From a virus (Duplodnaviria > Caudoviricetes), in the IMG/VR virus record IMGVR_UViG_3300024344_003081: DNA of 64,000 bases; one strand, written 5' to 3'. Shown one piece after another: positions 3-19,083 of this stretch. The first letter of the stretch is position 1, and each line of letters begins with the position of its first letter. Both the position numbers and the translations under genes were made by a program. The notes under the pieces are model-generated. The model was not told where the DNA came from. It made no database searches and saw only the letters and a program-made list of their open reading frames with translations.

Positions 3-2555
3 CGACCTGTAAATATAGAAGTTGTTGATACTAATTATAATGTTATTGTACCAGAATCCACTCAATATGTTGATTCTAATACTGTAAAAATAATTTTTCC
101 CATTGCTCAAGCAGGATTTGCCGCAATAACTTTTGGTGAAGGATCGTCTGGAACTTCTGGATCTTCAGGAACTTCTGGATCTTCAGGAACTTCTGGATCG
201 TCTGGACAAGATGGAAACTTTGGTGGTGCATCTTTTCAATATGTTTTTGAAGATACTTCATTTACAGGATCAGCAAGTGATCCTGGTTCTGGAAGACTTG
301 AAGTAGGTATTGATACTGGATCTGCACCAACTGATTTCTCTACAGTTAATAGACTTTCTATAAGTGAAACAGATTCAAATGGTGCCGATACTGAAAGTTT
401 TCTAGATCAAGTTGATGCATCATCTTCAGCAATTAAAGGTCATATAAGATTGGCCGCACTATTTGATGCTGGTCAATATGTAATGTTTACAGTTGGTGAT
501 CTTACGAATGCAGGAGATTATCAAGAAATAGAAGTTACAAAGATTGGTGGACAAGACGCATTTTTTGCTGATGATGCTGATATACTTTTTACAGTTGCAA
601 GAACTGGTGATGTTGGTACCTCAGGAACTTCTGGATCGTCTGGTAGTTCTGGATCTGCTGGCTCTGCGGGTTCTGCTGGAAGTGCTGGATCTGCTGGCTC
701 TGCAGGAAGTGCTGGATCCGCTGGCTCTGCAGGAAGTTCTGGAAGTGCTGGCTCATCTGGCTCTGCAGGAAGTGCAGGTTCTGCAGGAAGTGCAGGAAGT
801 GCAGGTACTGCTGGAAGTGCTGGAAGTGCTGGCTCTGCAGGAAGTGCTGGATCATCTGGTCGTGATGGCGGATCTTTTCTTCATACTCAATCTACACCTG
901 CACTTGTTTGGTTAATAAGTCACGCTTTAAATATTAGACCTCTAAATGTAGAAATTACTGATACTAATTTTAATATAATTATTCCAGAATCAATTCAATT
1001 TATTGATTCTAATACTGTAAAAGTTATTTTTCCCACTACTCAAGCAGGATATGCGGCACTTACTTTTGGTGAAGGATCGTCTGGAACTTCTGGTTCATCT
1101 GGATTGACTTATGCTTCATCTGGTTCTTCTGGAACTGCAGGAACTACTGGCTCTGCGGGTTCATCTGGATCGTCTGGTTCTGCTGGAAGTGCTGGTTCTG
1201 CAGGGAGTGCTGGCTCTGCTGGAAGTGCTGGAAGTGCTGGATCGTCTGGTTCTGCAGGAAGTTCTGGTTCTGCTGGCTCTGCAGGATCGTCTGGTTTAAC
1301 TTATGCTTCATCTGGTTCATCGGGTTCTTCTGGAGAAACTGGAACTGCTGGATCGTCTGGTTCTGCAGGAAGTTCTGGTTCTGCTGGCTCTGCAGGAAGT
1401 GCTGGATCATCTGGATCTGCAGGAAGTACAGGAAGTGCTGGCTCTGCAGGAAGTGCTGGATCGTCTGGTTCTGCAGGAAGTTCTGGTTCTGCAGGAAGTG
1501 CAGGGAGTGCTGGAACATCTGGAACAGATGGAACTGATGGAAATGCTGGCGGTGCTTACATTCATACTCAATCTTCAGCCGCACTTGTCTGGTTGATAAC
1601 TCATGGTTTAAATACTAGACCTTTAAATATCGAAGTTGTTGATGGTAATTATAATGTTATTATACCAGAATCTACTCAATATATTGATTCTAATACTGTA
1701 AAAATAATTTTTCCCACTACTCAAGCAGGATATGCTGGTCTCACACACGGAGAAGGATCTTCTGGAACATCTGGTACTTCTGGACTAACTTATGCTTCAT
1801 CTGGATCTGCAGGAAGTGCTGGATCTGCAGGGACTTCTGGTGTTTCTGGAAGTCTTCCAGCAGGAGGTGCTGGTCAAATTCAATATTATGCAACATCATC
1901 TACTCTTGGAGCGTATTCTGGATTTCTTGTAGATGATGTTACAACTCCAACTCAGATAGCCATGAATTTTCCAATTTACTCTTCAAGTGGTGCAACTGGA
2001 TTAGCTAATCTTAAAGTACATGGAACATCTGGACTTGATGGAGCAACTACAGTAGGGGGGACTTTAACTACAGTAGATATTCTTCCTTCTGCAAATAATA
2101 CGAGTGATGTTGGTTCAGCAACAATGGTTTATAATGACATGTATGCAGTTACATTTAACGGAAGAGCAACTTCAGCAAACTGGTCTGACTTGGCCGAGAG
2201 ATATGAATCAGATAAAATATATGAACCAGGAACTGTTTTAGCAGTAGGAGGAACAAAAGAGGTCACATTATATCAAGTTGACATGCCTTATGCTGGTGTT
2301 GTTTCAGATAAACCTGGATTGAGAATGAATGATGGTATGATACAAAGAGAAAATGAATTTATGCTTTTTATTTGTTTGAAAGGAAGAATATTAGTTAAGA
2401 TTGAGGGAGGATGTAATAAAGGAGATTTTATTATAGCTTATAAAGATGGAACTGGAAAAGTTATAACTAAATATGAATATGAACCACACAAACATGATTT
2501 AATTGGAATAGCATTAACTAATAGTAATGGTGATTTTGTAGAAGTAAAAGTATGA
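3..2555 (+). CDS. Tail fibre/adhesin-like protein with Gly-X-X (GSA/GSS/GTS) collagen-like repeats, a repeated ~65-aa spacer domain and a C-terminal intramolecular-chaperone (peptidase G2/S74-like) domain; 5' truncated by the window edge
   Basis: The frame of the 450..2555 ORF is open back to position 3 (RPVNIEVVDTNYNVIVPESTQYVDSNTVKIIFP...), so the TTG at 450 is internal. Three copies of the (HTQ..LVW.I.H.LN.)RP.N.E..D.N.N.I.PES.Q..DSNTVK.IFP domain. C-terminal SDLAERYESD..YEPGTV..VGG..EVT...GVVS..PG...N....LKGR motif typical of phage fibre chaperone domains. Confidence 0.75.
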   Translation, partial: RPVNIEVVDTNYNVIVPESTQYVDSNTVKIIFPIAQAGFAAITFGEGSSGTSGSSGTSGSSGTSGSSGQDGNFGGASFQYVFEDTSFTGSASDPGSGRLEVGIDTGSAPTDFSTVNRLSISETDSNGADTESFLDQVDASSSAIKGHIRLAALFDAGQYVMFTVGDLTNAGDYQEIEVTKIGGQDAFFADDADILFTVARTGDVGTSGTSGSSGSSGSAGSAGSAGSAGSAGSAGSAGSAGSAGSSGSAGSSGSAGSAGSAGSAGSAGTAGSAGSAGSAGSAGSSGRDGGSFLHTQSTPALVWLISHALNIRPLNVEITDTNFNIIIPESIQFIDSNTVKVIFPTTQAGYAALTFGEGSSGTSGSSGLTYASSGSSGTAGTTGSAGSSGSSGSAGSAGSAGSAGSAGSAGSAGSSGSAGSSGSAGSAGSSGLTYASSGSSGSSGETGTAGSSGSAGSSGSAGSAGSAGSSGSAGSTGSAGSAGSAGSSGSAGSSGSAGSAGSAGTSGTDGTDGNAGGAYIHTQSSAALVWLITHGLNTRPLNIEVVDGNYNVIIPESTQYIDSNTVKIIFPTTQAGYAGLTHGEGSSGTSGTSGLTYASSGSAGSAGSAGTSGVSGSLPAGGAGQIQYYATSSTLGAYSGFLVDDVTTPTQIAMNFPIYSSSGATGLANLKVHGTSGLDGATTVGGTLTTVDILPSANNTSDVGSATMVYNDMYAVTFNGRATSANWSDLAERYESDKIYEPGTVLAVGGTKEVTLYQVDMPYAGVVSDKPGLRMNDGMIQRENEFMLFICLKGRILVKIEGGCNKGDFIIAYKDGTGKVITKYEYEPHKHDLIGIALTNSNGDFVEVKV
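615..860 (+). repeat. Coding 9-bp-period tandem repeat (Gly-Ser-Ala/Gly-Ser-Ser triplets), block 1
   Basis: ggaagtgct/ggctctgca/ggatctgct units encoding GSAGSAGSS. Confidence 0.9.
1074..1550 (+). repeat. Coding 9-bp-period tandem repeat (Gly-X-X), block 2, interrupted by GLTYASSG motifs
   Basis: Same units as block 1; GLTYASSG occurs twice here and once near 1780. Confidence 0.9.
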
Positions 2556-2572: not shown

Positions 2573-3115
2573 ATGTCTAGTGAACAACAGGGTGAACATG
2601 CAAAAAATGTAGATGCTCTTTTTAATGAAGAAAGAGGAGCCTGTTATAGAAAAATTTCAGATTCACCATGGTGGTCTGATTTAGATTTTGAAAGCGAACA
2701 AGATGAAGATTTAATGTTTATTGAACTTTGGTCTTCAGTAGTTACTAATGAACACTATAAAGCATATAGAGTGATAACTTCACAAGGTATAGAAGATGAT
2801 GATCCAGAAAGAGAAAATTTAATAAAAGAATTTAGTGAACCAGGTCCAGATTTTGTTCATCCAAGCGTTTTTGTTAGAGGAAGAATATTAAATGATTTTG
2901 AATCATTATCTGTTAAATATGGAGAAGACACATTCGAAACTTATATAAAAAAATTGTATAATGATTATCCCGTGCCTGAAGATCAAGAAACTTTAAATTG
3001 GGTTACAGAAAATAATAAAAATCCTGATTTTTTACTTAATCATAAATGGAAGATTTTATCTGAATTATTGAGTTCAATTCATAATTATTGTGCGAATAAA
3101 GGAATATCATTATGA
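2573..3115 (+). CDS. Hypothetical acidic protein (180 aa)
   Basis: ORF with purine-rich RBS-like upstream sequence; ATGA overlap with the next gene. Confidence 0.7.
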   Translation: MSSEQQGEHAKNVDALFNEERGACYRKISDSPWWSDLDFESEQDEDLMFIELWSSVVTNEHYKAYRVITSQGIEDDDPERENLIKEFSEPGPDFVHPSVFVRGRILNDFESLSVKYGEDTFETYIKKLYNDYPVPEDQETLNWVTENNKNPDFLLNHKWKILSELLSSIHNYCANKGISL

Positions 3116-3696
3116 CTCAAACTGAAAGAATGCGTGTTTTTAAAAAGGCTTGGGTAAAAACAATTGAAAGAACATTGTATTCTCCGAATATTTCAGCAAA
3201 TGCTATAGGAGCTGGTATGTTTCTAGGTGAAGTTTCTATGCAATTATTTCCAGATAATAATTTAACTGAAAAATTAGACTTTTCTGTTGGGGAAAAATAT
3301 GTTGATATGAGATCATTAAAGCACGATATAATTAATTTGACAGGATCAGAAATAATTCCTTTTACAAGTGCAAATGATTTAACTGAATCTATGCGTGGAT
3401 CTAGTGCATTATATCTTCATGGTGAGAATTCTAGATTACTTAAAAAATTAGGAACTCAAATTAATGCATGTGTTCATTTAGGCAATGGTTATTTTATTGA
3501 TAATATGACAGGTAGTTCATTTACTTGGGATGGATATAAATATGATAATGAATTTGAACCTAGATTATTATGGTGGACAAAGATTCATTATAATCCAACA
3601 ATACATATAAATGGTATGTATTGTAGGCCTAACAATTTAGGAGATAATAATGATGAAATTGTGTGGAGAGATTTTTGGGATGGAATATGCCCTTAG
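3112..3696 (+). CDS. Hypothetical protein (194 aa)
   Basis: ORF coupled to neighbours; no recognised motif. Confidence 0.7.
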   Translation: MTQTERMRVFKKAWVKTIERTLYSPNISANAIGAGMFLGEVSMQLFPDNNLTEKLDFSVGEKYVDMRSLKHDIINLTGSEIIPFTSANDLTESMRGSSALYLHGENSRLLKKLGTQINACVHLGNGYFIDNMTGSSFTWDGYKYDNEFEPRLLWWTKIHYNPTIHINGMYCRPNNLGDNNDEIVWRDFWDGICP

Positions 3697-4067
3697 ATCC
3701 TGAAAATAAACTAGAAATAATAGTAAATTTAAGTGTAGCAAATAATGCGTTTGTTATTACAAGTGATATTGAACCTGTTCCTGATATGACTTTTTTTGAT
3801 CATATTAGAATATTTTCTGATCATTTGACTGGTTGGGTAGAACCCAAATCGGATAATTCACATAAATTAGATTTAACTCTTACGAGTAATAATTATTCGA
3901 TTCCCAAATATGTATCTTGCGGAGGACAATGGGGCGAAGCACATTATTGGCATTTTGAATTTAATAATTCAATATATCATGATGTAATAACTATATTAGA
4001 CAATAATAATATTTCATATACAGAAGTGTCAAATACAACTCCTGTGCATGTACGATTGAAATCTTAG
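3687..4067 (+). CDS. Hypothetical protein (~126 aa)
   Basis: ATG at 3687 overlaps the previous stop; more plausible than the track start at 3663. Confidence 0.65.
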   Translation: MPLDPENKLEIIVNLSVANNAFVITSDIEPVPDMTFFDHIRIFSDHLTGWVEPKSDNSHKLDLTLTSNNYSIPKYVSCGGQWGEAHYWHFEFNNSIYHDVITILDNNNISYTEVSNTTPVHVRLKS

Positions 4068-4074
4068 GAATTAT

Positions 4075-4668
4075 ATGGCTGGACCCTTAGCATGTCCTAC
4101 AAATTTGACTAATCTTGCTTCTCAATTAAATGATTTAGTTGAGCAGTCTGATATTAATACAATGAGAACTTCTATCAATGATGAATTGACTAGAAGATCC
4201 ATAACTAATGAAACTTGGGATCCTTATGCCGATCCAATCGCCGCATCAATATTTGATGAAATACAACTCGCAGTTGAATATAATTTAGGAGGAACTACAC
4301 CAACAACAGGTGTACCAATTCAACCAACTGTTTCTGCAGGTGATCTAATTTTAGCATCTCAAATTGAAACGTTAGAATCTAATCTTGATGAATGGAAAGT
4401 TTTATGCGTATGCAATTGTAATTTCTGTCCATGTAATTGTGACTTTTGTCCTTGTAACTGTGATTTCTGCCCATGTAATTGTGACTTTTGTCCTTGTAAC
4501 TGTAATTTTTGTCCGTGTAATTGTAACTTTTGCCCATGTAATTGCAATTTTTGTCCATGTAACTGTAATTTCTGTCCTTGTAACTGTAATTTCTGTCCTT
4601 GCAACTGTAACTTTTGCCCTTGTAATTGTAACTTCTGTCCGTGTAACTGTAACTTCGGTCCAAAATAG
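4075..4668 (+). CDS. Cys-rich repeat protein, putative radical-SAM substrate (RiPP-like precursor or virion protein): ~110-aa N-domain plus 12 x C-[V/P]-C-N-C-[N/D]-F
   Basis: Translation shows 12 heptads with 36 Cys; lies 10 nt upstream of a radical SAM/SPASM gene; SD-like AGGA upstream. Confidence 0.75.
   Translation: MAGPLACPTNLTNLASQLNDLVEQSDINTMRTSINDELTRRSITNETWDPYADPIAASIFDEIQLAVEYNLGGTTPTTGVPIQPTVSAGDLILASQIETLESNLDEWKVLCVCNCNFCPCNCDFCPCNCDFCPCNCDFCPCNCNFCPCNCNFCPCNCNFCPCNCNFCPCNCNFCPCNCNFCPCNCNFCPCNCNFGPK
4405..4656 (+). repeat. 21-bp coding tandem repeat, 12 copies, synonymously diversified
   Basis: 252 nt = 12 x 21; differences mostly at third codon positions (tgt/tgc, aat/aac, ttt/ttc, cca/cct/ccg). 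Confidence 0.95.
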
Positions 4669-4677
4669 AGAAATAAT

Positions 4678-5964
4678 ATGACTCAATCACACAACTTAGA
4701 AACTGTAGCTCCAAATCAAATGTATACACCACCAAGTACAGGGTGGTCTCCTCCACAACAGCAACAGAAGAATAATGGAGGAATGCCTGGCTTTAATCCA
4801 ATGCAGAGTTTTAATTTCGATGTAAACGTAACAAGTGAATGTAATCTTGCTTGTACTTACTGTTCAGAAGGAGAATCTTGTGGTCTTTCTTCTGCTTTTC
4901 AAGAGCCCACAGAAATGACTCCTGTGCAAGTAGTTGAAGCAGTAAGAACCTTAGATTATAACAAATATAAAGATGTAAATGTTTATTGGTGGGGAGGAGA
5001 ACCTTTTGCCAATTTTCATTTTACAAGTACTTGTATGAAATTATTGAAAGATGATAAAAAAGTTAATTTCATGTATTATACAAATGGTACTTATCTGAAA
5101 AAATATAAAAAACAACTTAAAGGTATTAGAGATATGCTTGGTAAGAGAATTGATTATCCTTGGCAAGATAGATTACATATACAAATTTCTTTTGATGGTG
5201 AGCCTATTAATACAAAAGAAAGAAGAACAAAAAAAGGCGAAAGTAAAAAATTATCGGCATCTGTTCTTAAAATATATGATGAGTTGAAAAAAGATGGATT
5301 TTCTGTAGGAATGAAACCTACTATCTCATCACGAAATTTTAAATATCTTTTTGAAGTTTGGAAGTGGCATCATGATCGAGGAGAACATTATGGACCTACT
5401 CCTGATACCCATAGTGTGGATCCAGATAGACCTGATGGCGCAGTTCCAGAAGAAGAATTTGCACAACACATGAAAGATTTAAGAGTGAATTTAATGAAAA
5501 TTGTCAAATATAGCATGGAGAATAAAATAGAATTAGCACAATCTTTTAGATGGTTTAAGAGAGAAAAACAAAATTGTTCAGCAGGAATAAATTATCTATC
5601 ATTGGATCTTGATGGTAAAACTTACCCATGTCATGGTTGTATGTATCGACAAAGGGAAGATCATCATAGAGGAGATATTAAATCTAATACTTTACAAAAA
5701 CTTGTTGATGAAACAACTGCGACATATCAATCATATTTAAATGATTTTAGAACAGATGGTACCTTAGCATGTAATAGTTGTACTGCAGATTTTTGTTTAA
5801 AATGTCCAGCGGGATCTTTTGATGCATCAGATACAAAATATCCAGAAAAAACAGTAGGTGAAAAATGGCAAGATCATACTGCAAATCATCAATTATGTAC
5901 TGTATGGAAAACCTTAGAACCCGTATCTAAAGCATATAGACAATTAACAGGACATCAATTATGA
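4678..5964 (+). CDS. Radical SAM/SPASM-domain protein #1
   Basis: CNLACTYC (CX3CX2C), WWGGEP, YTNG, QISFDG; C-terminal CSAG...DGKTYPCHGC...CNSC...CLKCPAGS...C auxiliary-cluster cysteines. Confidence 0.92.
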   Translation: MTQSHNLETVAPNQMYTPPSTGWSPPQQQQKNNGGMPGFNPMQSFNFDVNVTSECNLACTYCSEGESCGLSSAFQEPTEMTPVQVVEAVRTLDYNKYKDVNVYWWGGEPFANFHFTSTCMKLLKDDKKVNFMYYTNGTYLKKYKKQLKGIRDMLGKRIDYPWQDRLHIQISFDGEPINTKERRTKKGESKKLSASVLKIYDELKKDGFSVGMKPTISSRNFKYLFEVWKWHHDRGEHYGPTPDTHSVDPDRPDGAVPEEEFAQHMKDLRVNLMKIVKYSMENKIELAQSFRWFKREKQNCSAGINYLSLDLDGKTYPCHGCMYRQREDHHRGDIKSNTLQKLVDETTATYQSYLNDFRTDGTLACNSCTADFCLKCPAGSFDASDTKYPEKTVGEKWQDHTANHQLCTVWKTLEPVSKAYRQLTGHQL

Positions 5965-6176
5965 TAATAGGTGATCCTAAAAAGTGCCCAATAGCACTTT
6001 CTGATGGATGTACAACTTGTAGTAAAATTTATAGTGGGGAAGATAGAGTGGAATTTGGTAATTGTCAAGAAGAACCTATTAAAATTAATTTTCATATGAA
6101 ATTTAAAGATCAATTAACTGAGCAACAAAGAAAACAATCTGGTAGAGATCCTTGGAAGGAATTACAATATGCCTGA
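5961..6176 (+). CDS. Small Cys-containing hypothetical protein (71 aa)
   Basis: Overlaps both neighbours; CPIALSDGCTTC motif. Confidence 0.65.
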   Translation: MIIGDPKKCPIALSDGCTTCSKIYSGEDRVEFGNCQEEPIKINFHMKFKDQLTEQQRKQSGRDPWKELQYA

Positions 6177-7395
6177 ATATCATTTAGAAGTGTCAGTAAC
6201 AGAAAAATGTAATCTTGGTTGTCCATATTGTTATGTTGCAAATCAAGACAAATTTATGACACCTGAAGTGTTTGATAAAGCATGGCCTGAATTTATAAAG
6301 TTAGTAGATAGATCAAAGGCTGATGCTAGAGGAAGATTTCATTTAACATTTTTTGGTGGTGAACCTCTTTTAAATATGCCATTAATTAAACACGCTACAA
6401 AAAAATTAAGAGGAGGCGAACATTCTGATAGACTTCATGCATTATCAATTATTTCAAATATGACATTAATAAATGATGAGATTGCTGATTGGTTAGAAGA
6501 AAATCGAGTAGGAATAAGTTGGAGTTTTGATGGAATATCTTCAAATGAGTCTAGACCTGTAATTAAAAATATGGGAGAAAATAAAGGATATTCAAGTGTG
6601 TTTGAAATGTATAATGAAAAACAGCATTTGATTAGAAGACTGACAAAATATAGTAAGACATGTAAAGTGATGATTTTTCCTGCTAATGTTGATGCAATGA
6701 CAGAAAATTTTGAATTTTTAGTTGATTTTGGAATTCCTTGTCCAGATTTTTCTATTGTAAGAGATGATATTTGGTCTATTGATGATTTACAACATTTTAG
6801 AAGAGAGGTTAGAAGATTAGCAGATAAACAAATAGAATATCTTTCTAAAGGAATTTTAGCAGTTAATGGAATGTTTAATTTACCATTACAAGATATGTTA
6901 TTGGGTATTACTAAAAACAAGAGACCATTTGGATGTTTTGCAGGAGTGAGCGGTTCAGTTATGTCAGTAGAAGGAGAATTTTATCCATGTGCTAGATTTG
7001 GATCTAAAAAAGTTTTACCTATGAAAGGAGATGAATATAATTTTTCATATTTTCAACATATTTTTAATCCTAAAACATATAATAAATGTAAGGGGTGTGA
7101 TCTATATAAAGTATGTAATGCAGGTTGTACATATTCGCAGATAAGAAATGGAAATACACCTGTAGATTCTATTTGTGAATTATTTCATATGTACTATGAT
7201 GAAGCAATAAGAATTGTTGAAGAGTGTAAAGATTTTCCAACATTTCAAGATTATATTGGAAAATTATTTAAGGGTCGAGGAGACTTTTATACTCCTTTTG
7301 AAATAGAGGAAAAGAAAGATTTATTTTCTATGCTAGAAGTTTCACAGATGAAACATAGTGAACATCAATCATTTGTGGAATCATTACCAGCATGA
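6169..7395 (+). CDS. Radical SAM/SPASM-domain protein #2
   Basis: CNLGCPYC, FFGGEP, SFDG; SPASM CFAG...EGEFYPC...CKGC...CNAGC...C. Confidence 0.93.
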   Translation: MPEYHLEVSVTEKCNLGCPYCYVANQDKFMTPEVFDKAWPEFIKLVDRSKADARGRFHLTFFGGEPLLNMPLIKHATKKLRGGEHSDRLHALSIISNMTLINDEIADWLEENRVGISWSFDGISSNESRPVIKNMGENKGYSSVFEMYNEKQHLIRRLTKYSKTCKVMIFPANVDAMTENFEFLVDFGIPCPDFSIVRDDIWSIDDLQHFRREVRRLADKQIEYLSKGILAVNGMFNLPLQDMLLGITKNKRPFGCFAGVSGSVMSVEGEFYPCARFGSKKVLPMKGDEYNFSYFQHIFNPKTYNKCKGCDLYKVCNAGCTYSQIRNGNTPVDSICELFHMYYDEAIRIVEECKDFPTFQDYIGKLFKGRGDFYTPFEIEEKKDLFSMLEVSQMKHSEHQSFVESLPA

Positions 7396-8060
7396 TATTT
7401 GATAAACCTGTAATAGATCCAAGAGTTAACCAAGGAGATGGACCACCAAAATATATTCCTGGTCAATTATTAGATAAAAAAGATTTAACAGTATATCAAC
7501 ATAAAGATACTACAATGGTTGTTTTAGATTATGATCAAAAAATTAATGTTGATGTGATGAATGAAGTTTTATATAGAACTATAGAGGGTGGAGCAATAAG
7601 AAAAAATGAATATGTAATTATAGTATCTAAAAAACAATTAAATAGAAAAATGTTTAGAAATGTAATAGATAAAATTCTATATTCACAAGATTTGAGATAT
7701 GATTATATGTCAAGTCTTCCAAAGAATTTACATAATAATGTAATAGATTTTAAAGATACTAAAGAATTAACGGGGGACTTAAATAAATCTACATACGAAG
7801 AAGAAGGCACTTTAAGTTGGGAATTACTTAGTCCGGTTGAACAAGGTTGTATAATATTTGAACAATTTTATGGTGATGATCCTGAAATTGTCGCAGGTAA
7901 AAATATAAGTGCTGAAGAATGGATATCTGCAAATAGAAATGTTTGGCATCTTGTAGATAGAGCAACAGATGAACAGAGAAAAGAGTGGTTAGAAAAGTTC
8001 TATAGATATAAAAAAGTGTATGATACATTTCCAACCGCACCACTTATTACGGAGCCATAA
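7392..8060 (+). CDS. Hypothetical protein (222 aa)
   Basis: Coupled ORF within the rSAM cluster. Confidence 0.7.
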   Translation: MIFDKPVIDPRVNQGDGPPKYIPGQLLDKKDLTVYQHKDTTMVVLDYDQKINVDVMNEVLYRTIEGGAIRKNEYVIIVSKKQLNRKMFRNVIDKILYSQDLRYDYMSSLPKNLHNNVIDFKDTKELTGDLNKSTYEEEGTLSWELLSPVEQGCIIFEQFYGDDPEIVAGKNISAEEWISANRNVWHLVDRATDEQRKEWLEKFYRYKKVYDTFPTAPLITEP

Positions 8061-8323
8061 TGAATAAAGATGAACGAAAAGAAATTTCAGAAAAGGCGGC
8101 CCGTGAAGGTGATATCAATGCAATAATAAAACAATTGCAAGATGAAGAAACTCCTGATAAAGTTCAAGCTAGAGATAAAAATTTACTCAAGAGAAGTTTC
8201 GAATATGAATCCGGAGAAGAGGGAATAGGTCATGAGCCATTATTTAAATATAATTTAGATTTTGCAGGATTAATGAGAAATATGTCCTACATAATTAAAA
8301 AATATAAGGAAAGAAAAAAATGA
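8060..8323 (+). CDS. Hypothetical protein (87 aa)
   Basis: TAATG coupling upstream, ATGA coupling downstream. Confidence 0.65.
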   Translation: MNKDERKEISEKAAREGDINAIIKQLQDEETPDKVQARDKNLLKRSFEYESGEEGIGHEPLFKYNLDFAGLMRNMSYIIKKYKERKK

Positions 8324-9696
8324 GATCCCGTTCAGATAAAATTTGTCCAGAATTTAGTAAATTGGATGATATTATTGATTATGAAAGAGGATTGAATGAT
8401 GGAGAGAGTATATGCAAACCATATACAACCCATAAGATTCATGAATTGGCAACTATTCAGGAACAGAGTCTTGCAAAAAATCCAGATTCAAAAATTAGAG
8501 AAATTTCGAATAGAAAATTAAATGAAGTAGTAAAAGAAAATTTTGAATCTGTTTCAACAGATAGACATCGACATCGTATTGAAGATTTAAAACAGGGAAA
8601 AATAAAAACTGAAGAAGCAACTGTTAGTGAAATTTATGATAGACATTTTACACATGGAGAAAATGAAAAAACAAGAGTTGCACATGGTGGTGCAATTCAT
8701 TTATTTTATATGACAAGTCAATGTAATTTAGATTGTAATTATTGCTATCAGCATTTAGAAGGAAGACCTAAACATTTACCCGAACCTCCTTTAATAGCCA
8801 ATCTTATCGATAATATTATGGAATCAGATAGACCTGATGAACAAACTCTTTATTGTATTTTTGGTGGTGAACCTTTGATGGAATGGGAGAATTGTAGATT
8901 TTTAATGGATTATGCTTATAAATCAAAACATAATTGTCATTTTAATATAACATCAAATGGTATATTATTAAGTAAGCCTGCTTTTTTTAAAAAAGTGACC
9001 ACATATTTAGAAGAGCATCCTGAAATAAAACAAAGAGTTTCTTTTGATATTAGTTTTGATGGAGTTGGAAGTCAAGATAGAGTTTATTATTCTGGGAAAG
9101 ATTCAACTCTTGATGTATTAAAATGTTTTGGTAATATTATGGAATACAATAAAGACAAATCCCGTGAAGATCAAATACGGTGGAGATGTAGATATACTAT
9201 TCATAGATCAAATGTAATGTGTTTTGCAAAAGATATGTTTCATATAGCAACGACATATGGACCAGATAGAGTTGTAACATCTTTAGATAATAAGTGTGCA
9301 GAAGGCGAAACGCCAGAAGATGAAGCAAAAATTAAATGGTTATTAAAAGAACAAATTGATTGGCTTAGAGAAAAATGGAGAAGAAATTTAATAAATTATC
9401 CTGTGTGTAGTTTATTTTGTGATATGTGTAATTCATGTGGAGAAAAGAAAGATCATAGATTTTATTATAGTCAACAAGGTCTTGCTAGAATTCAAAATGT
9501 GAATGTAAGAGTTGGAGAAGAGTTCTTTGATTTTCCAGATGCAGATCCCGAAATAGAAAGAGAATTACCTAAAGCTGGGTTACCAAAAACAATGTTTGAT
9601 CGTTTAGGTATAGTTGATACCTTTGGTCAAGGATCTGGAACAGAACATTTACAAGAAACAAAATTTGCGGAAGACGGAAAAAGTCTTTCTTGTTAG
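8320..9696 (+). CDS. Radical SAM protein #3 with N-terminal extension and short C-terminal Cys cluster
   Basis: CNLDCNYC, IFGGEP, TSNG, ISFDG; C-terminal CSLFCDMCNSC rather than a full SPASM pattern. Confidence 0.88.
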   Translation: MRSRSDKICPEFSKLDDIIDYERGLNDGESICKPYTTHKIHELATIQEQSLAKNPDSKIREISNRKLNEVVKENFESVSTDRHRHRIEDLKQGKIKTEEATVSEIYDRHFTHGENEKTRVAHGGAIHLFYMTSQCNLDCNYCYQHLEGRPKHLPEPPLIANLIDNIMESDRPDEQTLYCIFGGEPLMEWENCRFLMDYAYKSKHNCHFNITSNGILLSKPAFFKKVTTYLEEHPEIKQRVSFDISFDGVGSQDRVYYSGKDSTLDVLKCFGNIMEYNKDKSREDQIRWRCRYTIHRSNVMCFAKDMFHIATTYGPDRVVTSLDNKCAEGETPEDEAKIKWLLKEQIDWLREKWRRNLINYPVCSLFCDMCNSCGEKKDHRFYYSQQGLARIQNVNVRVGEEFFDFPDADPEIERELPKAGLPKTMFDRLGIVDTFGQGSGTEHLQETKFAEDGKSLSC

Positions 9697-9704
9697 GAGA
9701 TATT

Positions 9705-10436
9705 ATGGCTGAAGAACATGAATTGATTAAAAAACACGCTAATGAAGCAATACAAGCATTAGTTCCATTATTAGATAATGAAAAAACACGCCATATAGGT
9801 CATGTATTATTAAAAGCAATTGACTTGGGTTTAGGTATGTTGTCAGCAGATGCTAAAGGAGAGTCTAGTGGAGCGAACAATCAAATAAGAGTAAGTGGGG
9901 CTTCTCCTCCAGGAACCGTTCCTCAAAATTTTCAGAAAGATATAGAGCAAGAAAATAAGGTACAGGGATTAGTAGATGAAACATTAAAGGAATTAGAAAT
10001 GATGGATAATCATGAATCTAATCCTGTAACTACAGACAAAGATGGTAATGAAATAGAATATGTAAAAGGAATGCTTTGTAATTGTCAATTTGCTTCTGAA
10101 TTTCACAAATACTGTGATAATCAATGTAAAGAGACTTTGATTAAAGCAGAAGGAAATCCAAAAGAATATATTAAATTTATTGATAAAGAAAGAAAAGAAC
10201 AAGATACTAAATCTCTTGATGAGGCAATGGATGAGGTTACAGGCTTTATTGATACAGAATTGGGTATTGGAGTTTCTCCTAGACCAAAACCACAACAATC
10301 ACAGCAACAAGCTCCTCAAAATGATGTACAGCAAGAAACTCCTTTAAATGAAGAAAACAAGCAATTTGCGTTAGATCCTAGTCAACCTGTTATTATGCCT
10401 GGTGAACCAACTGGACTTGAAAATGACAGTAGTTAA
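9705..10436 (+). CDS. Hypothetical acidic protein with CNC...C..QC motif
   Basis: SD AGGAGA precedes ATG 9705 (track start 9690 is TTG). Confidence 0.7.
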   Translation: MAEEHELIKKHANEAIQALVPLLDNEKTRHIGHVLLKAIDLGLGMLSADAKGESSGANNQIRVSGASPPGTVPQNFQKDIEQENKVQGLVDETLKELEMMDNHESNPVTTDKDGNEIEYVKGMLCNCQFASEFHKYCDNQCKETLIKAEGNPKEYIKFIDKERKEQDTKSLDEAMDEVTGFIDTELGIGVSPRPKPQQSQQQAPQNDVQQETPLNEENKQFALDPSQPVIMPGEPTGLENDSS

Positions 10437-10677
10437 TTTATCCTCTATTAATATTATTGCAGTTCTTACTAAGATAAAAAAATTAGAAGAAAGTAATATT
10501 TCAAATAAATATTCTCGTATAGTTGATTTATTAGATTCTACAAAATCAAGATTTGATGTTTCTCTTGATTCATATAAAAATGTGGAATTATTAGCAGATC
10601 ATATAGAATTTTCAACAACGGGCTTAATTCTTTGGCAAAGAATGAGAGATAAATATAACGACTTAGCGGACAAATGA
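10423..10677 (+). CDS. Hypothetical protein (~84 aa)
   Basis: ATG 10423; ATGA overlap with the next gene. Confidence 0.55.
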   Translation: MTVVNLSSINIIAVLTKIKKLEESNISNKYSRIVDLLDSTKSRFDVSLDSYKNVELLADHIEFSTTGLILWQRMRDKYNDLADK

Positions 10678-11657
10678 TGGCATTCAATGATATACCTGGA
10701 AATTCAACATGGAAAACTGTAAAATGTGATAACGAAATTGTTTCACTTGCTAATGGAAGTGAGCCTGATAAATTTGATCAAATTTTAGATTTATTAAAAT
10801 TAAATAAACAATATTATTTAGAAAATGGAACTACAGAAAACGAATGGCTTGATCGAGTTTCGGGCTTTGCTTGTCAGAGACCATATGTATCAACAACGAA
10901 TGAAGAACGATCTAAAGGAGAAGAATTGGGATTTTATGAAGATTTAGGTAGCCCTGATTGGGAGGCTTCTCAGAATGATTCCAAGATTACTGACCTTGCT
11001 AATGGAAGCGAATCCGATAAATATGATCAAATTTTAAATATATTAAAAACAAATAAAGAATATTATTTAAAAACTGCAGTAACCGAAGATCAATGGACTG
11101 ATAGAGTTTTATATTTTGCATATCAAAGAGGATCTGATGTTAGTGGTGATCCATTTATTGTAGATGATGCACCAGTATTACCTCTTGACTATATGGATTC
11201 TAAAGATATATCATGGTTTAATAGTGATATGAGATGGGAAATCGCAATGAAAATTTTAATTAATGCAATTGATGAAAAAGGAAAAACTTGGTATACAACT
11301 GAAACTGCTCAAACTCCTGATGGTAATATAGCTGGACCAAATGATTCTCAAATTTCTAGTTTAAGTTGGTTGCCATCAAATTGTATATCATTACATAATA
11401 AACTTATAAGTTCTACTTATTCTAAGTTCATATATATTATCAAGTTAAGTAATGTTCATTTGAGATATTCTGAACCATCAAAAATATTTGATGAAATTGA
11501 TACCGAAAACACTACTGCCATTTCAAATCTCAATACATCTCAATTGACAGATTTATTAGCATATGTTAGAGAAGCATATGTAAGTCGTCCAGACGATAAA
11601 ACAAATGAAAATTTTGAAGCCGCATGTGAAATGCTAGAGTTTGATATGGCACAATAA
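10674..11657 (+). CDS. Hypothetical protein with internal tandem duplication of a ~50-aa domain
   Basis: LANGSEPDKFDQILDLLKLNKQYYLE...EWLDRV and LANGSESDKYDQILNILKTNKEYYLK...QWTDRV. Confidence 0.72.
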   Translation: MMAFNDIPGNSTWKTVKCDNEIVSLANGSEPDKFDQILDLLKLNKQYYLENGTTENEWLDRVSGFACQRPYVSTTNEERSKGEELGFYEDLGSPDWEASQNDSKITDLANGSESDKYDQILNILKTNKEYYLKTAVTEDQWTDRVLYFAYQRGSDVSGDPFIVDDAPVLPLDYMDSKDISWFNSDMRWEIAMKILINAIDEKGKTWYTTETAQTPDGNIAGPNDSQISSLSWLPSNCISLHNKLISSTYSKFIYIIKLSNVHLRYSEPSKIFDEIDTENTTAISNLNTSQLTDLLAYVREAYVSRPDDKTNENFEAACEMLEFDMAQ

Positions 11658-11673
11658 TATATTGAGGAATATA

Positions 11674-12057
11674 ATGGTTACTAGAGAAGAAATTGAACAA
11701 AAGTGTAAAGACGCTTTTGATGAAGCAGGCATGGGCCTTTCCTTCCCAGAAATTACACCAGAAAAAAATATAGCACAGGATCTTGATATTGATTCAATTC
11801 ATATTTTAGAGACTATGATTCTTATTGAAGATGAATTTGATATTATGTTAGATGCTGAAGAATTTCAAAAAGCAACTACTGTAAGGGATCTTTATGATTT
11901 AGTTGAAGTAAAAATAAAACAAGGAGCTAAAATTAAAGAACTTGAAAAAGAAGCAGGCGATGATGAAAAAGCTAGAAACAGATTATTAGAACAACTAAAG
12001 AAAGATAAAGAAGCAGGTACAGGGGTTTATGAAATGAGCCAATATGAGAAAAAGTAA
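11674..12057 (+). CDS. acpP: Acyl carrier protein with charged C-terminal extension
   Basis: DLDIDSIHILETMILIEDEFDI matches the ACP helix II motif with the phosphopantetheine Ser in DS; SD GAGGA before ATG 11674. Confidence 0.88.
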   Translation: MVTREEIEQKCKDAFDEAGMGLSFPEITPEKNIAQDLDIDSIHILETMILIEDEFDIMLDAEEFQKATTVRDLYDLVEVKIKQGAKIKELEKEAGDDEKARNRLLEQLKKDKEAGTGVYEMSQYEKK

Positions 12058-13168
12058 AATATCAGGACTTGGTGACTATGGTGTATTTATAGATGATGTA
12101 TCATTAGCAGAAATGTCTGATAATGATTGGATGCAATTAGGAAAAGAACATCTTACAGATTTAGTTACAATTATTAGAAATGTAGATATTCAACCATCTG
12201 AATTTGAACGTAAGATGTATTTATGGGGCGCCCCATATGTTATAGATGGATATCGTATTAAGAAAAAATATGAAAAAAAATTAGGAATATCTAATTTATA
12301 TACATTATTCAAACGTGATCTTTTAGAAGAAGAAGATCGCCGACATGCAGAAAATTTAACGTGGTATATTGCGGCAGGGGATAATTTTACAGAAGAAGAG
12401 GTTCCTGCTGATTCTCATTTAATTCGTATAACTGGTATGAAAGAGAATGGGAGAAGTATGGGAATGTTTGCTGAAGGAGAATTGGGCTGGCATTCTAATG
12501 AAGCGGGTTCGCTTTGCTTTACTCCTGGTGTTGCACTCATGGGCATAAAAGGAATGGTGGGGTCTTCAACAGGATTTGTTTGTTCTGCAACTTGGTACGA
12601 AAAGCAAAGAGATTCTTTTAAAAGAGAATTAGATGATATGACTGTTATTTTTAAATATCAAAATTATGAAACTGCTCCTGAATTAAATAAAGATCAAGAT
12701 GATTCATTTCGTTGGAATCAAACGTTTGAACCGATTGAACTTCCACTGGTTATTACAACCCCTGGAGGAATAAAAGGTCTGCATTATTCTCCTGGTACAG
12801 TAGAGAGAACTAAATTTTTAGATGATTTAGACAAAGAATTATTTGTAGATGAATATACTTATCATCACAAGTATGAAAGAAATAATGATATATTACTTTT
12901 TGATAATTGTATTACTTTGCATAATAGACAAGGATCCCCCATTGAACGAGTGGCTTATCGAGAACCATGTGATTATGCTCAGTTAATTCCTGATGGATAT
13001 AATTATTATTCCCAAGAGCCTTATAAAACACAATTTGAAGAAATGAGAAAAGACATACAGGAAACTCTTGGTGTTAAATCTATAGCTGAACAGAATATGG
13101 TTTTTAAAAAATATATTCAACCAAAATTCCCCAAAAGAGAATGGAAAAACAATGATCTAGTGAGGTAA
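12044..13168 (+). CDS. TauD/TfdA-family Fe(II)/2-oxoglutarate dioxygenase-like protein
   Basis: GELGWHSNE (WHxD-like) and ILLFDNCITLHNR (W/FDNxxxxHxR) motifs. Confidence 0.78.
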   Translation: MRKSKISGLGDYGVFIDDVSLAEMSDNDWMQLGKEHLTDLVTIIRNVDIQPSEFERKMYLWGAPYVIDGYRIKKKYEKKLGISNLYTLFKRDLLEEEDRRHAENLTWYIAAGDNFTEEEVPADSHLIRITGMKENGRSMGMFAEGELGWHSNEAGSLCFTPGVALMGIKGMVGSSTGFVCSATWYEKQRDSFKRELDDMTVIFKYQNYETAPELNKDQDDSFRWNQTFEPIELPLVITTPGGIKGLHYSPGTVERTKFLDDLDKELFVDEYTYHHKYERNNDILLFDNCITLHNRQGSPIERVAYREPCDYAQLIPDGYNYYSQEPYKTQFEEMRKDIQETLGVKSIAEQNMVFKKYIQPKFPKREWKNNDLVR

Positions 13169-13169
13169 A

Positions 13170-13787
13170 ATGAAAAAAATGATGATAACAGGTGTGAGTT
13201 CTGGTTTAGGAAAAGCACTTTTTGAATATTATGATGGAAAATATATTCAAAAATATAAAGATGTAATAGAAGTTGAAGGTCACAGTAGAAGATATAATCA
13301 ACATGATATTCAAGACATTAAAGATTGGTTTGATCCTGAAGCAGATATTTTTATCAATAATGCATATAGTGATCTGAGATGGTGGACTCAAACGAATGCA
13401 TTATTATATTCTTTTTCAGTTTGGGCAGATAAACCCGATAAACATATTGTGTCTATAAGTTCAATTGCACAGGAAAAAGATACTGATGGATGGCCTATTG
13501 GTCATAGTAGATATTCAGTAGGAAAAATTTCTCTTGATAAAATGAATTTAGACTGTCATGAAAAAGTAGCAAAAAAACATGGATGTAAAGTTTCTAATTT
13601 AAGACTTGGTTGGGTAGAAACACCTAGAACAACAAGAATAAGTACTGTAGTAAGTCGTTTATATGATGTTGATCCTGTTAAGCAAACAACTGGAACAATG
13701 TTGAGTACAGATGAATGTATAGATGCTATAGACTTTATGTTAAATCATAGTGGAAGAGTAAGAGAAATGACATTGGAGGCAAAATGA
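13170..13787 (+). CDS. Short-chain dehydrogenase/reductase (SDR)
   Basis: ITGVSSGLG Rossmann motif, INNA, YSVGK (YxxxK). Confidence 0.88.
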   Translation: MKKMMITGVSSGLGKALFEYYDGKYIQKYKDVIEVEGHSRRYNQHDIQDIKDWFDPEADIFINNAYSDLRWWTQTNALLYSFSVWADKPDKHIVSISSIAQEKDTDGWPIGHSRYSVGKISLDKMNLDCHEKVAKKHGCKVSNLRLGWVETPRTTRISTVVSRLYDVDPVKQTTGTMLSTDECIDAIDFMLNHSGRVREMTLEAK

Positions 13788-14812
13788 GCAAGGTGTTACA
13801 AATAGCAACTAGACATCCTGAAAATGAACATCATAATAAAGATTTTGCCGCAGAATTAAAATTATGGTGGGAAGAAAAAGGATATTCGGGTAGAGTTTTT
13901 GATAGATATCTTCCATTAACGGGTGTTGAAACTCGATATGCTTGTTATAATCGAGAGGAGATGAGAGAAAAATCTCAAACGTTTACTCAAAAAAATAAAA
14001 CATTTAATGAAGTTGCTATAAAATTATCATTAGAATGTGTAAAGGAATTGGAATTTAATCCACAAGATGTTTGTATGTTAACATCAACTACTATGACAGG
14101 TGTTGGTATTCCTACGATTCCCCATACAATATTAAAAGAATTTAATTTTCCAGAATCAATGATTAAAATACCCATGTTTGGTCTAGCATGTAATGGAGGC
14201 ACTCATATTTTAGGAATAGCAAATGAATATTTAAAAGGTAATCCAGACAAGTTAGTTATAGCAATGACTAACGATTTATGTTCAATGAATTTGTGTCCTG
14301 AACATGCTACATTAACAACTGTTTTTGGATCTGTAATATTTGGTGATGGAATTAGTGCTATTTTAATTGCAGGAGATAATTATAATGATGCACCAGGATG
14401 GAAATTACATAAACATGTGTCATATGTTTTACCAGATACAGAAGATTATATTACTCTTCAAGGATTAAGTGAAGGATTATTATATCATGTAGAATCAACT
14501 AAATTGCAAGAAATACCAAAAGCATCTGCGGCATTTAATGATAAAATTAAAGAATTTATTGAAGGTCATACTATTAATAATTGGATATGTCATCCAGGAG
14601 GAAAAATTGTTTTAGAAAATACTGTAAAGGGGCTTAATTTACCTGAAGGTGCTTTGGATTCATCTTTTGAATTATTTCGAAATTTTGGAAATATGTCTGC
14701 AACTTCAGTAATAAAAACTTTACAGCATGATTTTGATAAAGATGGCAAAACAGTTATGATTTCTTATGGGCCAGGTTTTCAGGTTGATGTTATATTATTA
14801 GAAAAAATATGA
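13784..14812 (+). CDS. Type III polyketide synthase (chalcone/alkylresorcinol synthase family)
   Basis: Cys-His-Asn triad contexts GLACNGG, WICHPGGK.VL, FGNMSATSV; also FGDG and SYGPGF. Confidence 0.92.
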   Translation: MSKVLQIATRHPENEHHNKDFAAELKLWWEEKGYSGRVFDRYLPLTGVETRYACYNREEMREKSQTFTQKNKTFNEVAIKLSLECVKELEFNPQDVCMLTSTTMTGVGIPTIPHTILKEFNFPESMIKIPMFGLACNGGTHILGIANEYLKGNPDKLVIAMTNDLCSMNLCPEHATLTTVFGSVIFGDGISAILIAGDNYNDAPGWKLHKHVSYVLPDTEDYITLQGLSEGLLYHVESTKLQEIPKASAAFNDKIKEFIEGHTINNWICHPGGKIVLENTVKGLNLPEGALDSSFELFRNFGNMSATSVIKTLQHDFDKDGKTVMISYGPGFQVDVILLEKI

Positions 14813-15237
14813 TTTGGGGAAAAGATAAACACGATATTCGTAATAGAATTTTGTCGATGACAATAGAAAATGGCTTGGGTATAGATTTACAAACAATAGA
14901 ACCCATTCAAAAAATATATGATAAATGGGGTGATAAATTTGTTAATAAAATATTAACAGATATAGAAAAGAAAAATGCACCAAATCCCATAACTGCAAAA
15001 TATTTAACAAAATGTTGGTGTGTTAAAGAAGCATTTTCAAAAGCAATTGCATCTCCATATTTGAGACTCGATGTTAGTTATACACATTTAAAAGCTAGAG
15101 GAGCAAGATTTCCTGTTGTTCATTGTGTTATGGAACCCAAAGATTGGAATTTGAAACGACAAGATATTAGACTTTCTTTATCTGATACAAAAGATTATGT
15201 GGTCGCAATAGTTATTACAGGAGTTAATCCTTTGTGA
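14809..15237 (+). CDS. acpS: Holo-ACP synthase (AcpS-type 4'-phosphopantetheinyl transferase)
   Basis: GLGIDL, W.VKEAFSKA, LSLSDTKDYVVAIV motifs; ~140 aa. Confidence 0.85.
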   Translation: MIWGKDKHDIRNRILSMTIENGLGIDLQTIEPIQKIYDKWGDKFVNKILTDIEKKNAPNPITAKYLTKCWCVKEAFSKAIASPYLRLDVSYTHLKARGARFPVVHCVMEPKDWNLKRQDIRLSLSDTKDYVVAIVITGVNPL

Positions 15238-15959
15238 TAAAAACCTTAGACTATACAATCCCTTCTGAATGGAATAATAAAAATATTATTTCTAGTTTTA
15301 TTGATTCGGGATTTTTAGTAATTAATCATCCCTTCATAGATATGAAAGAAGGTTTACTTTCTTTTAAAGAAAAACTTAAAATACAATTAAACGAATTAGA
15401 AGAAACTGAAGAGGGGTATAGAAAAATTATATTAAAAAATTGTGATAATATTAAACAAAGATTTTTAAAAGTGGGATGTGAAATTTTATATGTTATTGAA
15501 GAATTTTTAAATGTTCCTCCAAATTCTATTGCAATGAAACATGCTGATTCTGATAATGCTTTGAGATTGGTTAAATATTATAAAGATCAGAAAGGATCAA
15601 TAAGAGTAGGAGAACATTGTGATTTTGGTACTTTAACACTTGTTCATGTTTGTGATCCTGTAGAAGAATATGAAATATTTTATGATGATAAATGGAGAAC
15701 AATAAATCATCCTAGTGATGATTTTTTGATTGTGAATATAGGTGATTTTATGCAGATTTGGTCAGATAATAAATTAAAATCTACTCCGCATAGAATAACG
15801 AATAAAACAAAAAAAGAAAGACACAGTATGATTATGTTTATGGATGCTGGTAATCATACTATTAAAGGAATTGATCATGCTACTTGGAATAAAAAAAGAA
15901 TACAAATGGCTCATACAGGAGTAACATATTATCATGACAAAGGTATCGTACAAATATAA
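15234..15959 (+). CDS. Fe(II)/2OG dioxygenase, isopenicillin-N-synthase-like
   Basis: LRLVKY, GEHCDFGTLTL (HxD), VNIGDFMQIWS...STPHR, RHS (RxS). Confidence 0.9.
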   Translation: MIKTLDYTIPSEWNNKNIISSFIDSGFLVINHPFIDMKEGLLSFKEKLKIQLNELEETEEGYRKIILKNCDNIKQRFLKVGCEILYVIEEFLNVPPNSIAMKHADSDNALRLVKYYKDQKGSIRVGEHCDFGTLTLVHVCDPVEEYEIFYDDKWRTINHPSDDFLIVNIGDFMQIWSDNKLKSTPHRITNKTKKERHSMIMFMDAGNHTIKGIDHATWNKKRIQMAHTGVTYYHDKGIVQI

Positions 15960-19082: not shown

Positions 19083-19083
19083 C

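Follow-up and report, generated by a model that had tools for sequence, protein, structure and literature searches.

The DNA analyzed here, which we call the window, is a stretch of 64,000 nucleotides from the IMG/VR virus record IMGVR_UViG_3300024344_003081 (Duplodnaviria; Caudoviricetes). The source virus is a marine T4-like myovirus of approximately 30% GC with every gene on the + strand. Matches in the PHROG database include a major head protein, a gp43-type polymerase, a gp41-type helicase, and CobS, and the major capsid protein is 64% identical to its counterpart in Pelagibacter phage HTVC008M. Our subject is a cassette at positions 4075-10677, in which a protein with an array of Cys-rich heptads is followed by genes for three radical S-adenosylmethionine (SAM) enzymes, here designated rS1, rS2, and rS3. 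The open reading frames (ORFs) of the cassette form a translationally coupled chain, each overlapping or nearly abutting the next. The features of the locus are these:

3..2555, + strand: collagen-like (Gly-Ser-Ala) tail-fiber gene, directly upstream of the cassette operon, with several tail-fiber PHROG matches
4075..4668, + strand: heptad-repeat protein, 197 aa, with a helical N-domain, a pre-repeat helix, 12 Cys-rich units, and a GPK end
4405..4656, + strand: array of 12 units C-x-C-N-C-(N/D)-F (residues 111-194), the presumed substrate region
4678..5964, + strand: rS1, radical SAM/SPASM, 428 aa; Pfam Radical_SAM 51.7 bits, SPASM 21.4 bits against a cutoff of 21.5
5961..6176, + strand: 71-aa ORF with four Cys, lineage-specific, overlapping both neighbors
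6169..7395, + strand: rS2, radical SAM/SPASM, 408 aa; best NCBIfam match PapB, 142.5 bits (cutoff 340)
7392..8060, + strand: 222-aa ORF, lineage-specific, in the slot held by a fourth small radical SAM gene in locus L010
8060..8323, + strand: conserved small helical partner, 87 aa, immediately upstream of rS3
8320..9696, + strand: rS3, radical SAM, 458 aa; Pfam Radical_SAM 31.1 bits, one C-terminal four-Cys motif
9690..10436 and 10402..10677, + strand: two coupled ORFs, 248 aa and 91 aa, lineage-specific, without family matches

As a preliminary description of this DNA had it, the translation of ORF 4075-4668 is a 197-aa protein with 12 heptads and 36 Cys. The heptads run uninterrupted from residue 111 to residue 194 as one CVCNCNF, three CPCNCDF, and eight CPCNCNF units, after which the chain ends in GPK; Cys7 is the only cysteine outside of the array. 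Tandem Repeats Finder reports a period of 21 and a DNA identity of 82%. When the units are compared pairwise, 195 synonymous versus 38 nonsynonymous codon changes are counted, and the eight identical CPCNCNF units all differ from each other at synonymous sites. This synonymous excess indicates that selection keeps the array at the protein level and that it is not a fresh product of slippage.

The repeat belongs to a large protein family. Searching 1.84 billion representatives with the family profile (hmmsearch) recovered 513 clusters, counted at 50% identity, at E ≤ 1e-3 and 270 at E ≤ 1e-10. Across the family the unit reads C-x-C-(N 61%/D 27%/Q 7%)-C-(N 86%/D 9%)-(Y 74%/F 12%/H 8%), where the three Cys were fixed by the regular expression and their conservation therefore falls outside of these percentages. 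Successive units are spaced by 7 in 789 cases and by 8 in 419, a freedom that points to small autonomous units and away from a superhelix of strict periodicity. The consensus N-domain consists of two or three copies of VSxGDxIxASxhNELRxxIN, the last of which runs into the first unit. Many members continue into a Peptidase_S74 (S74) domain; the window's protein falls in a subfamily without it (P0003-P0014, L029, L058), whose members always end in two residues plus Lys (GPK, encoded at 4657-4668 in the window, IPK, QGK, NSK, AGK, or WSK). In addition, its members have in common an N-terminal C-P-(T/S)-N-L-T motif together with a conserved Cys7.

The gene set is undescribed by any paper or curated family, and the statement of the preliminary description that the heptad family is uncharacterized holds. 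The 197-aa protein matches a single PHROG of unknown function, phrog_26958, which is the family of CPt10_1891 (1.7e-19, residues 88-158). Neither this protein nor 10 diverse family members have a relevant NCBIfam match, including to the CXXX-repeat target, Nif11, NHLP, and SCIFF models, and the repeat proteins match nothing in Pfam apart from S74. A lead from Atlas to PF27846 (0.83, rank 83) is below the tool's own reliability mark. In the source databases these proteins are labeled merely "hypothetical protein" or "Chaperone of endosialidase," and our literature search found no description of this repeat family or of radical SAM maturation of a phage fiber.

Downstream of the repeat protein, two SPASM-type enzymes and one further radical SAM enzyme had been proposed, and this assignment is confirmed by Pfam scores and conserved Cys sets. 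All three enzymes exceed the 29.5-bit cutoff of PF04055 (51.7, 51.0, and 31.1 bits for rS1, rS2, and rS3, respectively). Assignment to SPASM was based on the arrangement CX9-15GX4C ... CX2CX5CX3C ... C, which provides seven Cys for two auxiliary [4Fe-4S] clusters. Across 43 orthologs, rS1 conserves C55/59/62 (CxxxCxxC) and seven further Cys in SPASM spacing (C300, C318, C365, C368, C373, C376, and C407; each at least 98% conserved). Similarly, 37 orthologs of rS2 conserve C14/18/21 (CxxxCxxC) and seven SPASM Cys with the canonical CX2CX5CX3C (C256, C274, C307, C310, C316, C320, and C336; each at least 98% conserved). Across 28 orthologs, rS3 conserves C135/139/142 and, at the C-terminus, only CX3CX2CX2C (C363/367/370/373); it is therefore not a SPASM enzyme, and SPASM membership is confined to rS1 and rS2. 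An N-terminal extension of approximately 125 aa in rS3 is lineage-specific.

PapB (NF047865) is the top-scoring NCBIfam family for all three enzymes, with 142.5 bits for rS2 and 77.5 and 53.5 bits for the other two against a cutoff of 340, and it is followed in varying order by QhpD, the nif11-peptide maturase, CcpM, and the SCIFF maturase. The best scores are likewise below the cutoffs of QhpD (TIGR03906; 96.4 bits, as the second-best family of rS2, against 453), the SCIFF maturase (TIGR03974; 67.4 against 425), CcpM (TIGR04068; 75.4 against 500), and the CXXX-repeat maturase (TIGR04115; 58.7 against 350). Among PDB chains, rS2 can be aligned over its full length with CteB (5wgg, E 6.7e-13), rS1 matches the SPASM part of CteB and the core of YydG, and rS3 has no sequence match. 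In a FastTree phylogeny the enzymes form three separate clades, of 23 sequences for rS1 (support 1.0), 14 for rS3 (support 1.0), and 18 for the heptad-linked rS2 group (support 0.98).

The heptad protein and these enzymes are found together across many viral genomes. A search with an IUPAC DNA pattern for two consecutive units, for which the expectation of a chance match is negligible, retrieved 58 loci in IMG/VR versus 5 among 185,579 prokaryote species genomes (one genome each). After duplicates and Campylobacter phages were removed, the IMG/VR and genome contigs represent 47 distinct repeat-protein sets. All three radical SAM types lie in the fetched flank in 22 of these and one or two types in 14; a search for the combined neighborhood had been suggested in the preliminary description. 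Where the flank is long enough, almost all loci have orthologs of the same radical SAM enzymes. Among the 11/47 sets with no radical SAM gene in view, L020 and L039 have the trio just outside of the locus, five are contig ends or stubs of 1-3 kb (L012, L028, L029/L031, L051, and L058), two are long CPt10_1891-like proteins (L075 and L077), and one (L047/L076) is a Clostridium peptide with a different radical SAM enzyme. The check for repeat homologs that lack radical SAM genes, suggested at the outset as one that could refute the link, speaks for it, in that only one informative fragment, L017, lacks them.

The association is conserved in the reverse direction as well. Using a profile of rS2 orthologs at E ≤ 1e-47 and looking for a heptad ORF within 8 kb, we find such an ORF at 28/33 loci with an rS2 ortholog versus 0/46 loci with more distant phage radical SAM/SPASM genes. 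The five exceptions are L082 (at a contig edge), L099 (an 8.6-kb contig), L107 (phage CPt10 itself), L109, and L084. In the last of these (L084:10200-11600), the reading frames of the N-domain and S74 differ and neither the helix nor the heptads are present, owing either to an assembly collapse of the repeat or to a natural deletion. The gene set is thus a widespread phage cassette and not a one-off.

Two of the loci from prokaryote genome collections are of separate note. L073 lies on a 161,038-bp contig (PAAV01000055.1) of a metagenome-assembled genome (MAG) labeled 'Chloroflexota' and encodes a window-type repeat protein ending in CAWSK together with an rS1 ortholog (1.6e-152); this contig is probably a T4-like phage genome that was binned into a bacterial MAG. 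In Clostridium rectalis (L076/L047, NZ_UYZZ01000009.1), a 148-aa Cys-rich protein with two heptad-like units is encoded beside a 434-aa radical SAM enzyme that is weakly related to rS3 (7e-9), and this is the sole cellular look-alike of a ribosomally synthesized and post-translationally modified peptide (RiPP) system that we found.

Cultured phages show the same association. Among 50,697 GenBank phage records, the heptad DNA or the N-domain of CPt10_1891, rS1, and rS2 match the same 15 records (11 Campylobacter Firehammervirus phages). In these records rS2 is 34% identical; rS1 and the N-domain have no match elsewhere among the 50,697 records, and 28 further records, for the most part phage fragments from gut metagenomes, match rS2 weakly at 22-26% identity. 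In CPt10, an rS1-like gene stands three genes after the repeat gene, and the rS2-like and rS3-like genes (the latter at E 1e-20) are far away, at approximately 17.8 kb and 84.8 kb. Since the cassette genes are dispersed in this phage, the co-occurrence is one at the level of the genome and not just linkage. The link between heptad protein and radical SAM enzymes is strongly supported by the neighborhood conserved in both directions and by this identical distribution in cultured phages.

The repeat protein of these phages, CPt10_1891/CPT_0180 (phrog_26958), has the same pre-repeat helix and C-T-C-(D/N)-C-N-Y units and shares its genome with the same enzyme clades. It differs from the window's protein in its length of 534 aa, in having another N-domain and a C-terminal region where CxC(N/D)x(N/D) motifs are dispersed, and in the scattering of the radical SAM genes. 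Timms et al. (2010; PMC2853527) recorded only a 21-bp intragenic repeat in CPT_0180/CPt10_1891 and, separately, 11-12 unexplained radical SAM genes. In phage IBB_35, gene 3-9 is listed among the virion proteins detected by tandem mass spectrometry, at 2.6% coverage (PMC3322345 supplement). By position and size (1605 bp, 60,318 Da) this gene is the CPt10_1891 homolog.

The architecture of the family is that of a fiber-type protein, in which helix motifs are followed by heptads and then often by the Peptidase_S74 chaperone. This domain is an intramolecular chaperone of trimeric tail fibers and spikes. It scores above the Pfam cutoff in 7/7 full-tail members scanned, L016 among them, and position 1 of the model falls on the residue after the last unit. 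The architecture (CTCNCNY)x4-S74 was confirmed on IMG/VR loci such as L036. Among 203 members analyzed, the tail is a full S74 domain of approximately 70 residues in 21 and a 12-residue stub, SDxRLKxxIxY(I/L/M), in 61. The Ser and Lys of SDxRLK have a spacing that, given what is established for endosialidase chaperones, we take to be that of the S74 catalytic dyad. The stubs keep these two residues without the rest of S74, for example in L024:4685-7282 (four tandem genes) and L034:7389-9455, and one of the L034 paralogs has a full S74 and two have the stub. In many members the repeats are joined to S74 or lie within proteins of 500-1200 aa, and a C-type lectin domain is present in one long member. 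An S74-type member matches PHROGs annotated as virion structural or tail fiber protein. Three metagenomic members of 380-463 aa (P0098, P0145, and P0148) have a sub-threshold Hint_2 match (24-27 bits, cutoff 28.4) that begins at position 1 of the model right after the Cys-rich array, which may represent a second kind of self-cleaving C-terminal domain.

The window's protein has an N-domain homologous to those of these S74-bearing relatives. An iterated profile built from its first 110 residues, with the repeats removed, reached 195/203 N-domains, including 21/21 of the S74-full proteins at 1e-20 to 1e-28, and gave 0 matches to shuffled controls; because the 203 members had been preselected with the full profile, this result demonstrates shared motifs and is not an independent discovery. 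The AlphaFold2 (AF2) monomer has three helices in the N-terminal 110 aa, with a predicted local distance difference test (pLDDT) score of 73-86; Foldseek found nothing for this model in the PDB at E ≤ 0.001. A homotrimer prediction with three copies of the 197-aa protein gave no answer (score 0.00) and counts neither way.

The genomic setting is also that of fiber genes. Directly upstream of the cassette, the gene at 3-2555 encodes long proline-free, collagen-like Gly-Ser-Ala tracts and a C-terminal domain (..DLAERYESD..) that matches phrog_22593/19602. In three lineages, represented by the window, L010, and L120, the cassette is preceded by a long fiber gene, and these genes all end in the same C-terminal domain.

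A sister system shares the enzymes and the position before S74. In L110, L111, L116, L118-L120, and L125, rS2-like and rS1-like genes are followed by a fiber-type protein with S74. In the phylogeny, these enzymes fall inside the rS1 and rS2 clades or next to them. Its pre-S74 segment is made of hexads, for example CICNSD, CSCNNV, CACHND, and CDCNY followed by SDERLK; in L119:3262-6237 there are four CxC(N/H)x(D/V) hexads, CICNSDCSCNNVCACHNDCDCNY, and then SDERLK. No rS3 is in view at the sister loci, so that this CxCNxD system has two enzymes. The common denominator of the two systems is a CxC(N/D) cluster just before the S74 cleavage site together with an rS1/rS2 pair. We considered a rule of three Cys per unit for three enzymes and rejected it, given that L013, L042, and L049 have three-Cys heptads with only rS1 and rS2.

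Taken together, we propose that the radical SAM enzymes mature a small fiber-type virion protein, probably by thioether stapling, and we regard this as the best explanation, with a probability slightly above even. On its separate parts our confidence differs. The repeat is very probably the substrate of the radical SAM enzymes. Thioether formation would be the leading chemistry, given that the nearest enzyme families all form Cys-derived thioethers and that the Cys and the Asn/Asp are invariant. The family is built like a trimeric fiber with the repeat at its C-terminal end, and we therefore find a virion role for the window's own protein reasonably likely and favor it over a free peptide; its trimeric state and virion location are what we infer from these relatives. 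The earlier interpretation is accordingly supported in part: the suggestion of a virion- or tail-associated protein rather than a secreted bacteriocin receives genuine though indirect support from S74 in homologs, the upstream fiber genes, and the IBB_35 virion match, and is weakened for the window's protein in that it has no S74 itself.

In the mechanism that we envisage, the cassette would carry out a phage-encoded protein maturation that follows RiPP logic and acts on a small fiber-type structural protein. A helical N-domain of GDxIxAxxhNxLR-type motifs would lead through its last helix straight into the 12 autonomous units. Late in infection, rS1, rS2, and rS3 with its 87-aa partner would modify the units in the unfolded chain by forming intramolecular links from Cys sulfur to a carbon of neighboring Asn/Asp or aromatic residues. 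Each heptad contains two overlapping C-x-x-N pairs. The product would be a C-terminal rod or tip of a virion fiber that is rigid, densely stapled, and resistant to proteases. Chemistry familiar from peptide antibiotics would in this way be used on a protein of the virus particle. More tentatively, and with a probability that we place somewhat below even, hundreds of phage lineages, comprising marine T4-like phages, large uncultured viral contigs, and Firehammerviruses, may staple a Cys-rich virion-fiber tip by means of radical SAM/SPASM enzymes, often with subsequent exposure by a self-cleaving S74.

A number of findings weigh against this proposal. The virion evidence consists of a single distant homolog whose coverage corresponds to roughly one peptide, and the window's own protein has no Peptidase_S74 (PF13884) by Pfam and ends in GPK. 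The heptads are unfolded in the AF2 monomer (pLDDT <55), and their variable 7/8 spacing speaks against a strictly periodic fiber fold. L017, a 43.8-kb fragment estimated to be 23% complete, encodes a 17-unit protein with truly no radical SAM gene in view, and several heptad loci show only rS1 and rS2, indicating that rS3 is not universal. All three enzymes are far below every NCBIfam equivalog cutoff, which leaves room for other radical SAM chemistry such as epimerization or formylglycine formation. Finally, a RiPP precursor would also account for the tandem paralogous repeat genes (3-4 in L024 and L034) and for the length and conservation of the N-terminal part. The protein could indeed be a true RiPP, in which the N-terminal 110 aa serve as a leader, the 12 units are cyclized by the radical SAM enzymes, and cell lysis frees a modified Cys-rich peptide that acts as a metallophore, toxin, or signal and would need no transporter. 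This possibility, which we judge unlikely, gains from the membership of the enzymes in the peptide-maturase radiation, the repeated core motifs with tandem precursor-like genes in L024 and L034, a pre-repeat region that is the most conserved part, as in leaders, and the absence of S74 or another virion domain from the window's protein, as well as from the Clostridium genome with a small Cys-rich two-unit peptide beside a radical SAM gene (L076). However, the locus combines modifying enzymes and a repeated core with no detectable protease, transporter, RiPP recognition element (RRE), or known leader family: within 2573-11657, Pfam and NCBIfam reveal no peptidase or transporter, in agreement with the preliminary description, and no Nif11 or NHLP leader. 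Moreover, the family is essentially virus-restricted, with the 58 viral loci set against 5 in the species genomes, many members are fused to the trimer-dependent S74 chaperone or are 500-1200 aa long, the cassette sits behind tail-fiber genes, and a homolog was detected in IBB_35 virions.

Other alternatives concern what the enzymes do, or whether they act on the repeat at all. The top families of all three enzymes form Cys-derived thioethers (PapB, QhpD, and SCIFF; CcpM acts on Cys-rich peptides), and the invariant Cys and Asn/Asp match known donor-acceptor pairs. For these reasons we consider it rather unlikely that the same enzymes perform a different chemistry on the same substrate, be it L-to-D epimerization, conversion of Cys to formylglycine or to a dehydro residue, or C-C links to the aromatic residue, even though the N-terminal half of rS1 matches the epimerase YydG (3e-5), rS2 matches anSME (3e-5) and TIGR03942 (9e-15), no enzyme reaches an equivalog cutoff, and the alternating C-x-C-x-C would suit an alternating modification. 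The repeat might instead be an unmodified metal-binding or disulfide-rich module, whether metallothionein-like, a Cys layer on the trimer axis comparable to the HxH-iron sites at the T4 gp37 tip, or an Fe/S reservoir for the radical SAM enzymes, which would then act elsewhere. That the array packs 36 Cys into 84 residues, that in a strand the alternation would make all three Cys of a unit point to the same side, and that marine T4-like genomes rich in radical SAM genes also carry Fe-S assembly genes (PMC5332604) would agree with such a module. Yet it would leave the 86% conservation of Asn at position 6 unexplained, the radical SAM clades track the Cys motif in both directions across unrelated phage lineages and even where the genes are dispersed, and the sister pair of rS1-like and rS2-like enzymes goes with a different motif, CxCNxD, in the same pre-S74 position. 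We hold an unmodified module to be very unlikely and favor enzymatic maturation of the repeat.

The remaining ORFs differ in how widely they are conserved. The 87-aa partner is a conserved fifth component of the cassette. At least 14 distinct loci have a homolog of it in the corresponding position, and its motif is H-L-F-x-Y-x-x-D-(Y/F)-x-x-(F/L)-(L/M)-x-N-M-S-x-I-I-K, of which the His, Leu, and Tyr are invariant. We rejected its identification as an RRE or PqqD-like protein, as the AF2 model is all-helical with only the C-terminal helix confident. The 71-aa ORF has a homolog only in L037 (7e-12) and no Pfam or NCBIfam match. Homologs of the 248-aa and 91-aa ORFs, which have no Pfam, NCBIfam, or PHROG match, occur only in L023 and L044, and, beyond the window, the 222-aa ORF and the other small ORFs within 4075-10677 are seen in its closest relatives only. 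The slot of this unrelated 222-aa ORF is occupied in many S74-type cassettes by a fourth small radical SAM gene, for example in L010:6334-7224 (296 aa), where it lies between rS2 and a partner of the 87-aa type. The T4 late-promoter motif TATAAATA shows no enrichment, with 7 occurrences where 14.8 would be expected and none upstream of the cassette. Directly downstream, at 11641-21468, the translations read as acyl carrier protein (ACP)-like, type III polyketide synthase (PKS)-like, phosphopantetheinyl transferase-like, and oxygenase genes and a run of desaturase-like genes. We rejected this block as part of the cassette; only in L023 and L044, which are the closest relatives, do homologs of its first two genes occur alongside the cassette, and it therefore looks like a separate module.

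The known targets of radical SAM/SPASM maturases are secreted peptides and a few bacterial enzymes, and we know of no virus structural protein that is matured by them. Stapling of virion-fiber tips across phage lineages would, if true, be the first case in which enzymes install RiPP-type cross-links in a structural protein of a virus, and the heptad repeat would be a new fold. The system would define three new enzyme clades and a large substrate family, with the approximately 513 clusters at 50% identity and, for the S74 type, more than 600 clusters at 90% identity. Densely stapled repeat rods might offer stable scaffolds, and receptor-binding tips built in this manner would bear on host recognition by phages. 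It would also explain the many radical SAM genes in Campylobacter CP220-type phages and in some marine T4-like phages (PMC2853527, PMC5332604). The Firehammerviruses, which are grown on Campylobacter jejuni, provide a cultured model.

The closest known peptide systems are PapB/PapA (freyrasin) and the ranthipeptides (SCIFF/CteB, NxxcB), in which a radical SAM/SPASM enzyme likewise stands beside a substrate with tandem Cys motifs and Asp/Asn acceptors. In contrast to the ranthipeptides, the cassette has three distinct enzymes rather than one, its unit is C-x-C-N-C-N-(F/Y) and not CX3D or NxxC, and its substrate is a virus-restricted phage protein of 150-1200 aa, often with S74, whereas theirs is a short exported peptide. 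Among fibers, the S74 proteins (endosialidase, T5 pb1) are the nearest counterparts. To our knowledge no known S74 fiber has a Cys-rich repeat or dedicated radical SAM enzymes; the likeness is that S74 starts right after the last heptad in many family members and that the SDxRLK dyad spacing is kept. At the distal tip of T4 gp37, HxH repeats bind iron on the trimer axis, and like the heptads these are short repeats of alternating residues at the distal end of a T4-type fiber; the gp37 repeats use His where the heptads use Cys/Asn, and the heptads differ further in their spacing of 7 or 8 and their association with enzymes. QhpD and QhpC offer a further parallel. The three links of QhpC are irregularly spaced, with no tandem array, and the system belongs to a bacterial periplasmic enzyme rather than to a virion protein, but here too a protein subunit that remains within a larger assembly, and is not secreted as a peptide, receives several Cys-to-Asp/Glu thioethers from a radical SAM/SPASM enzyme.

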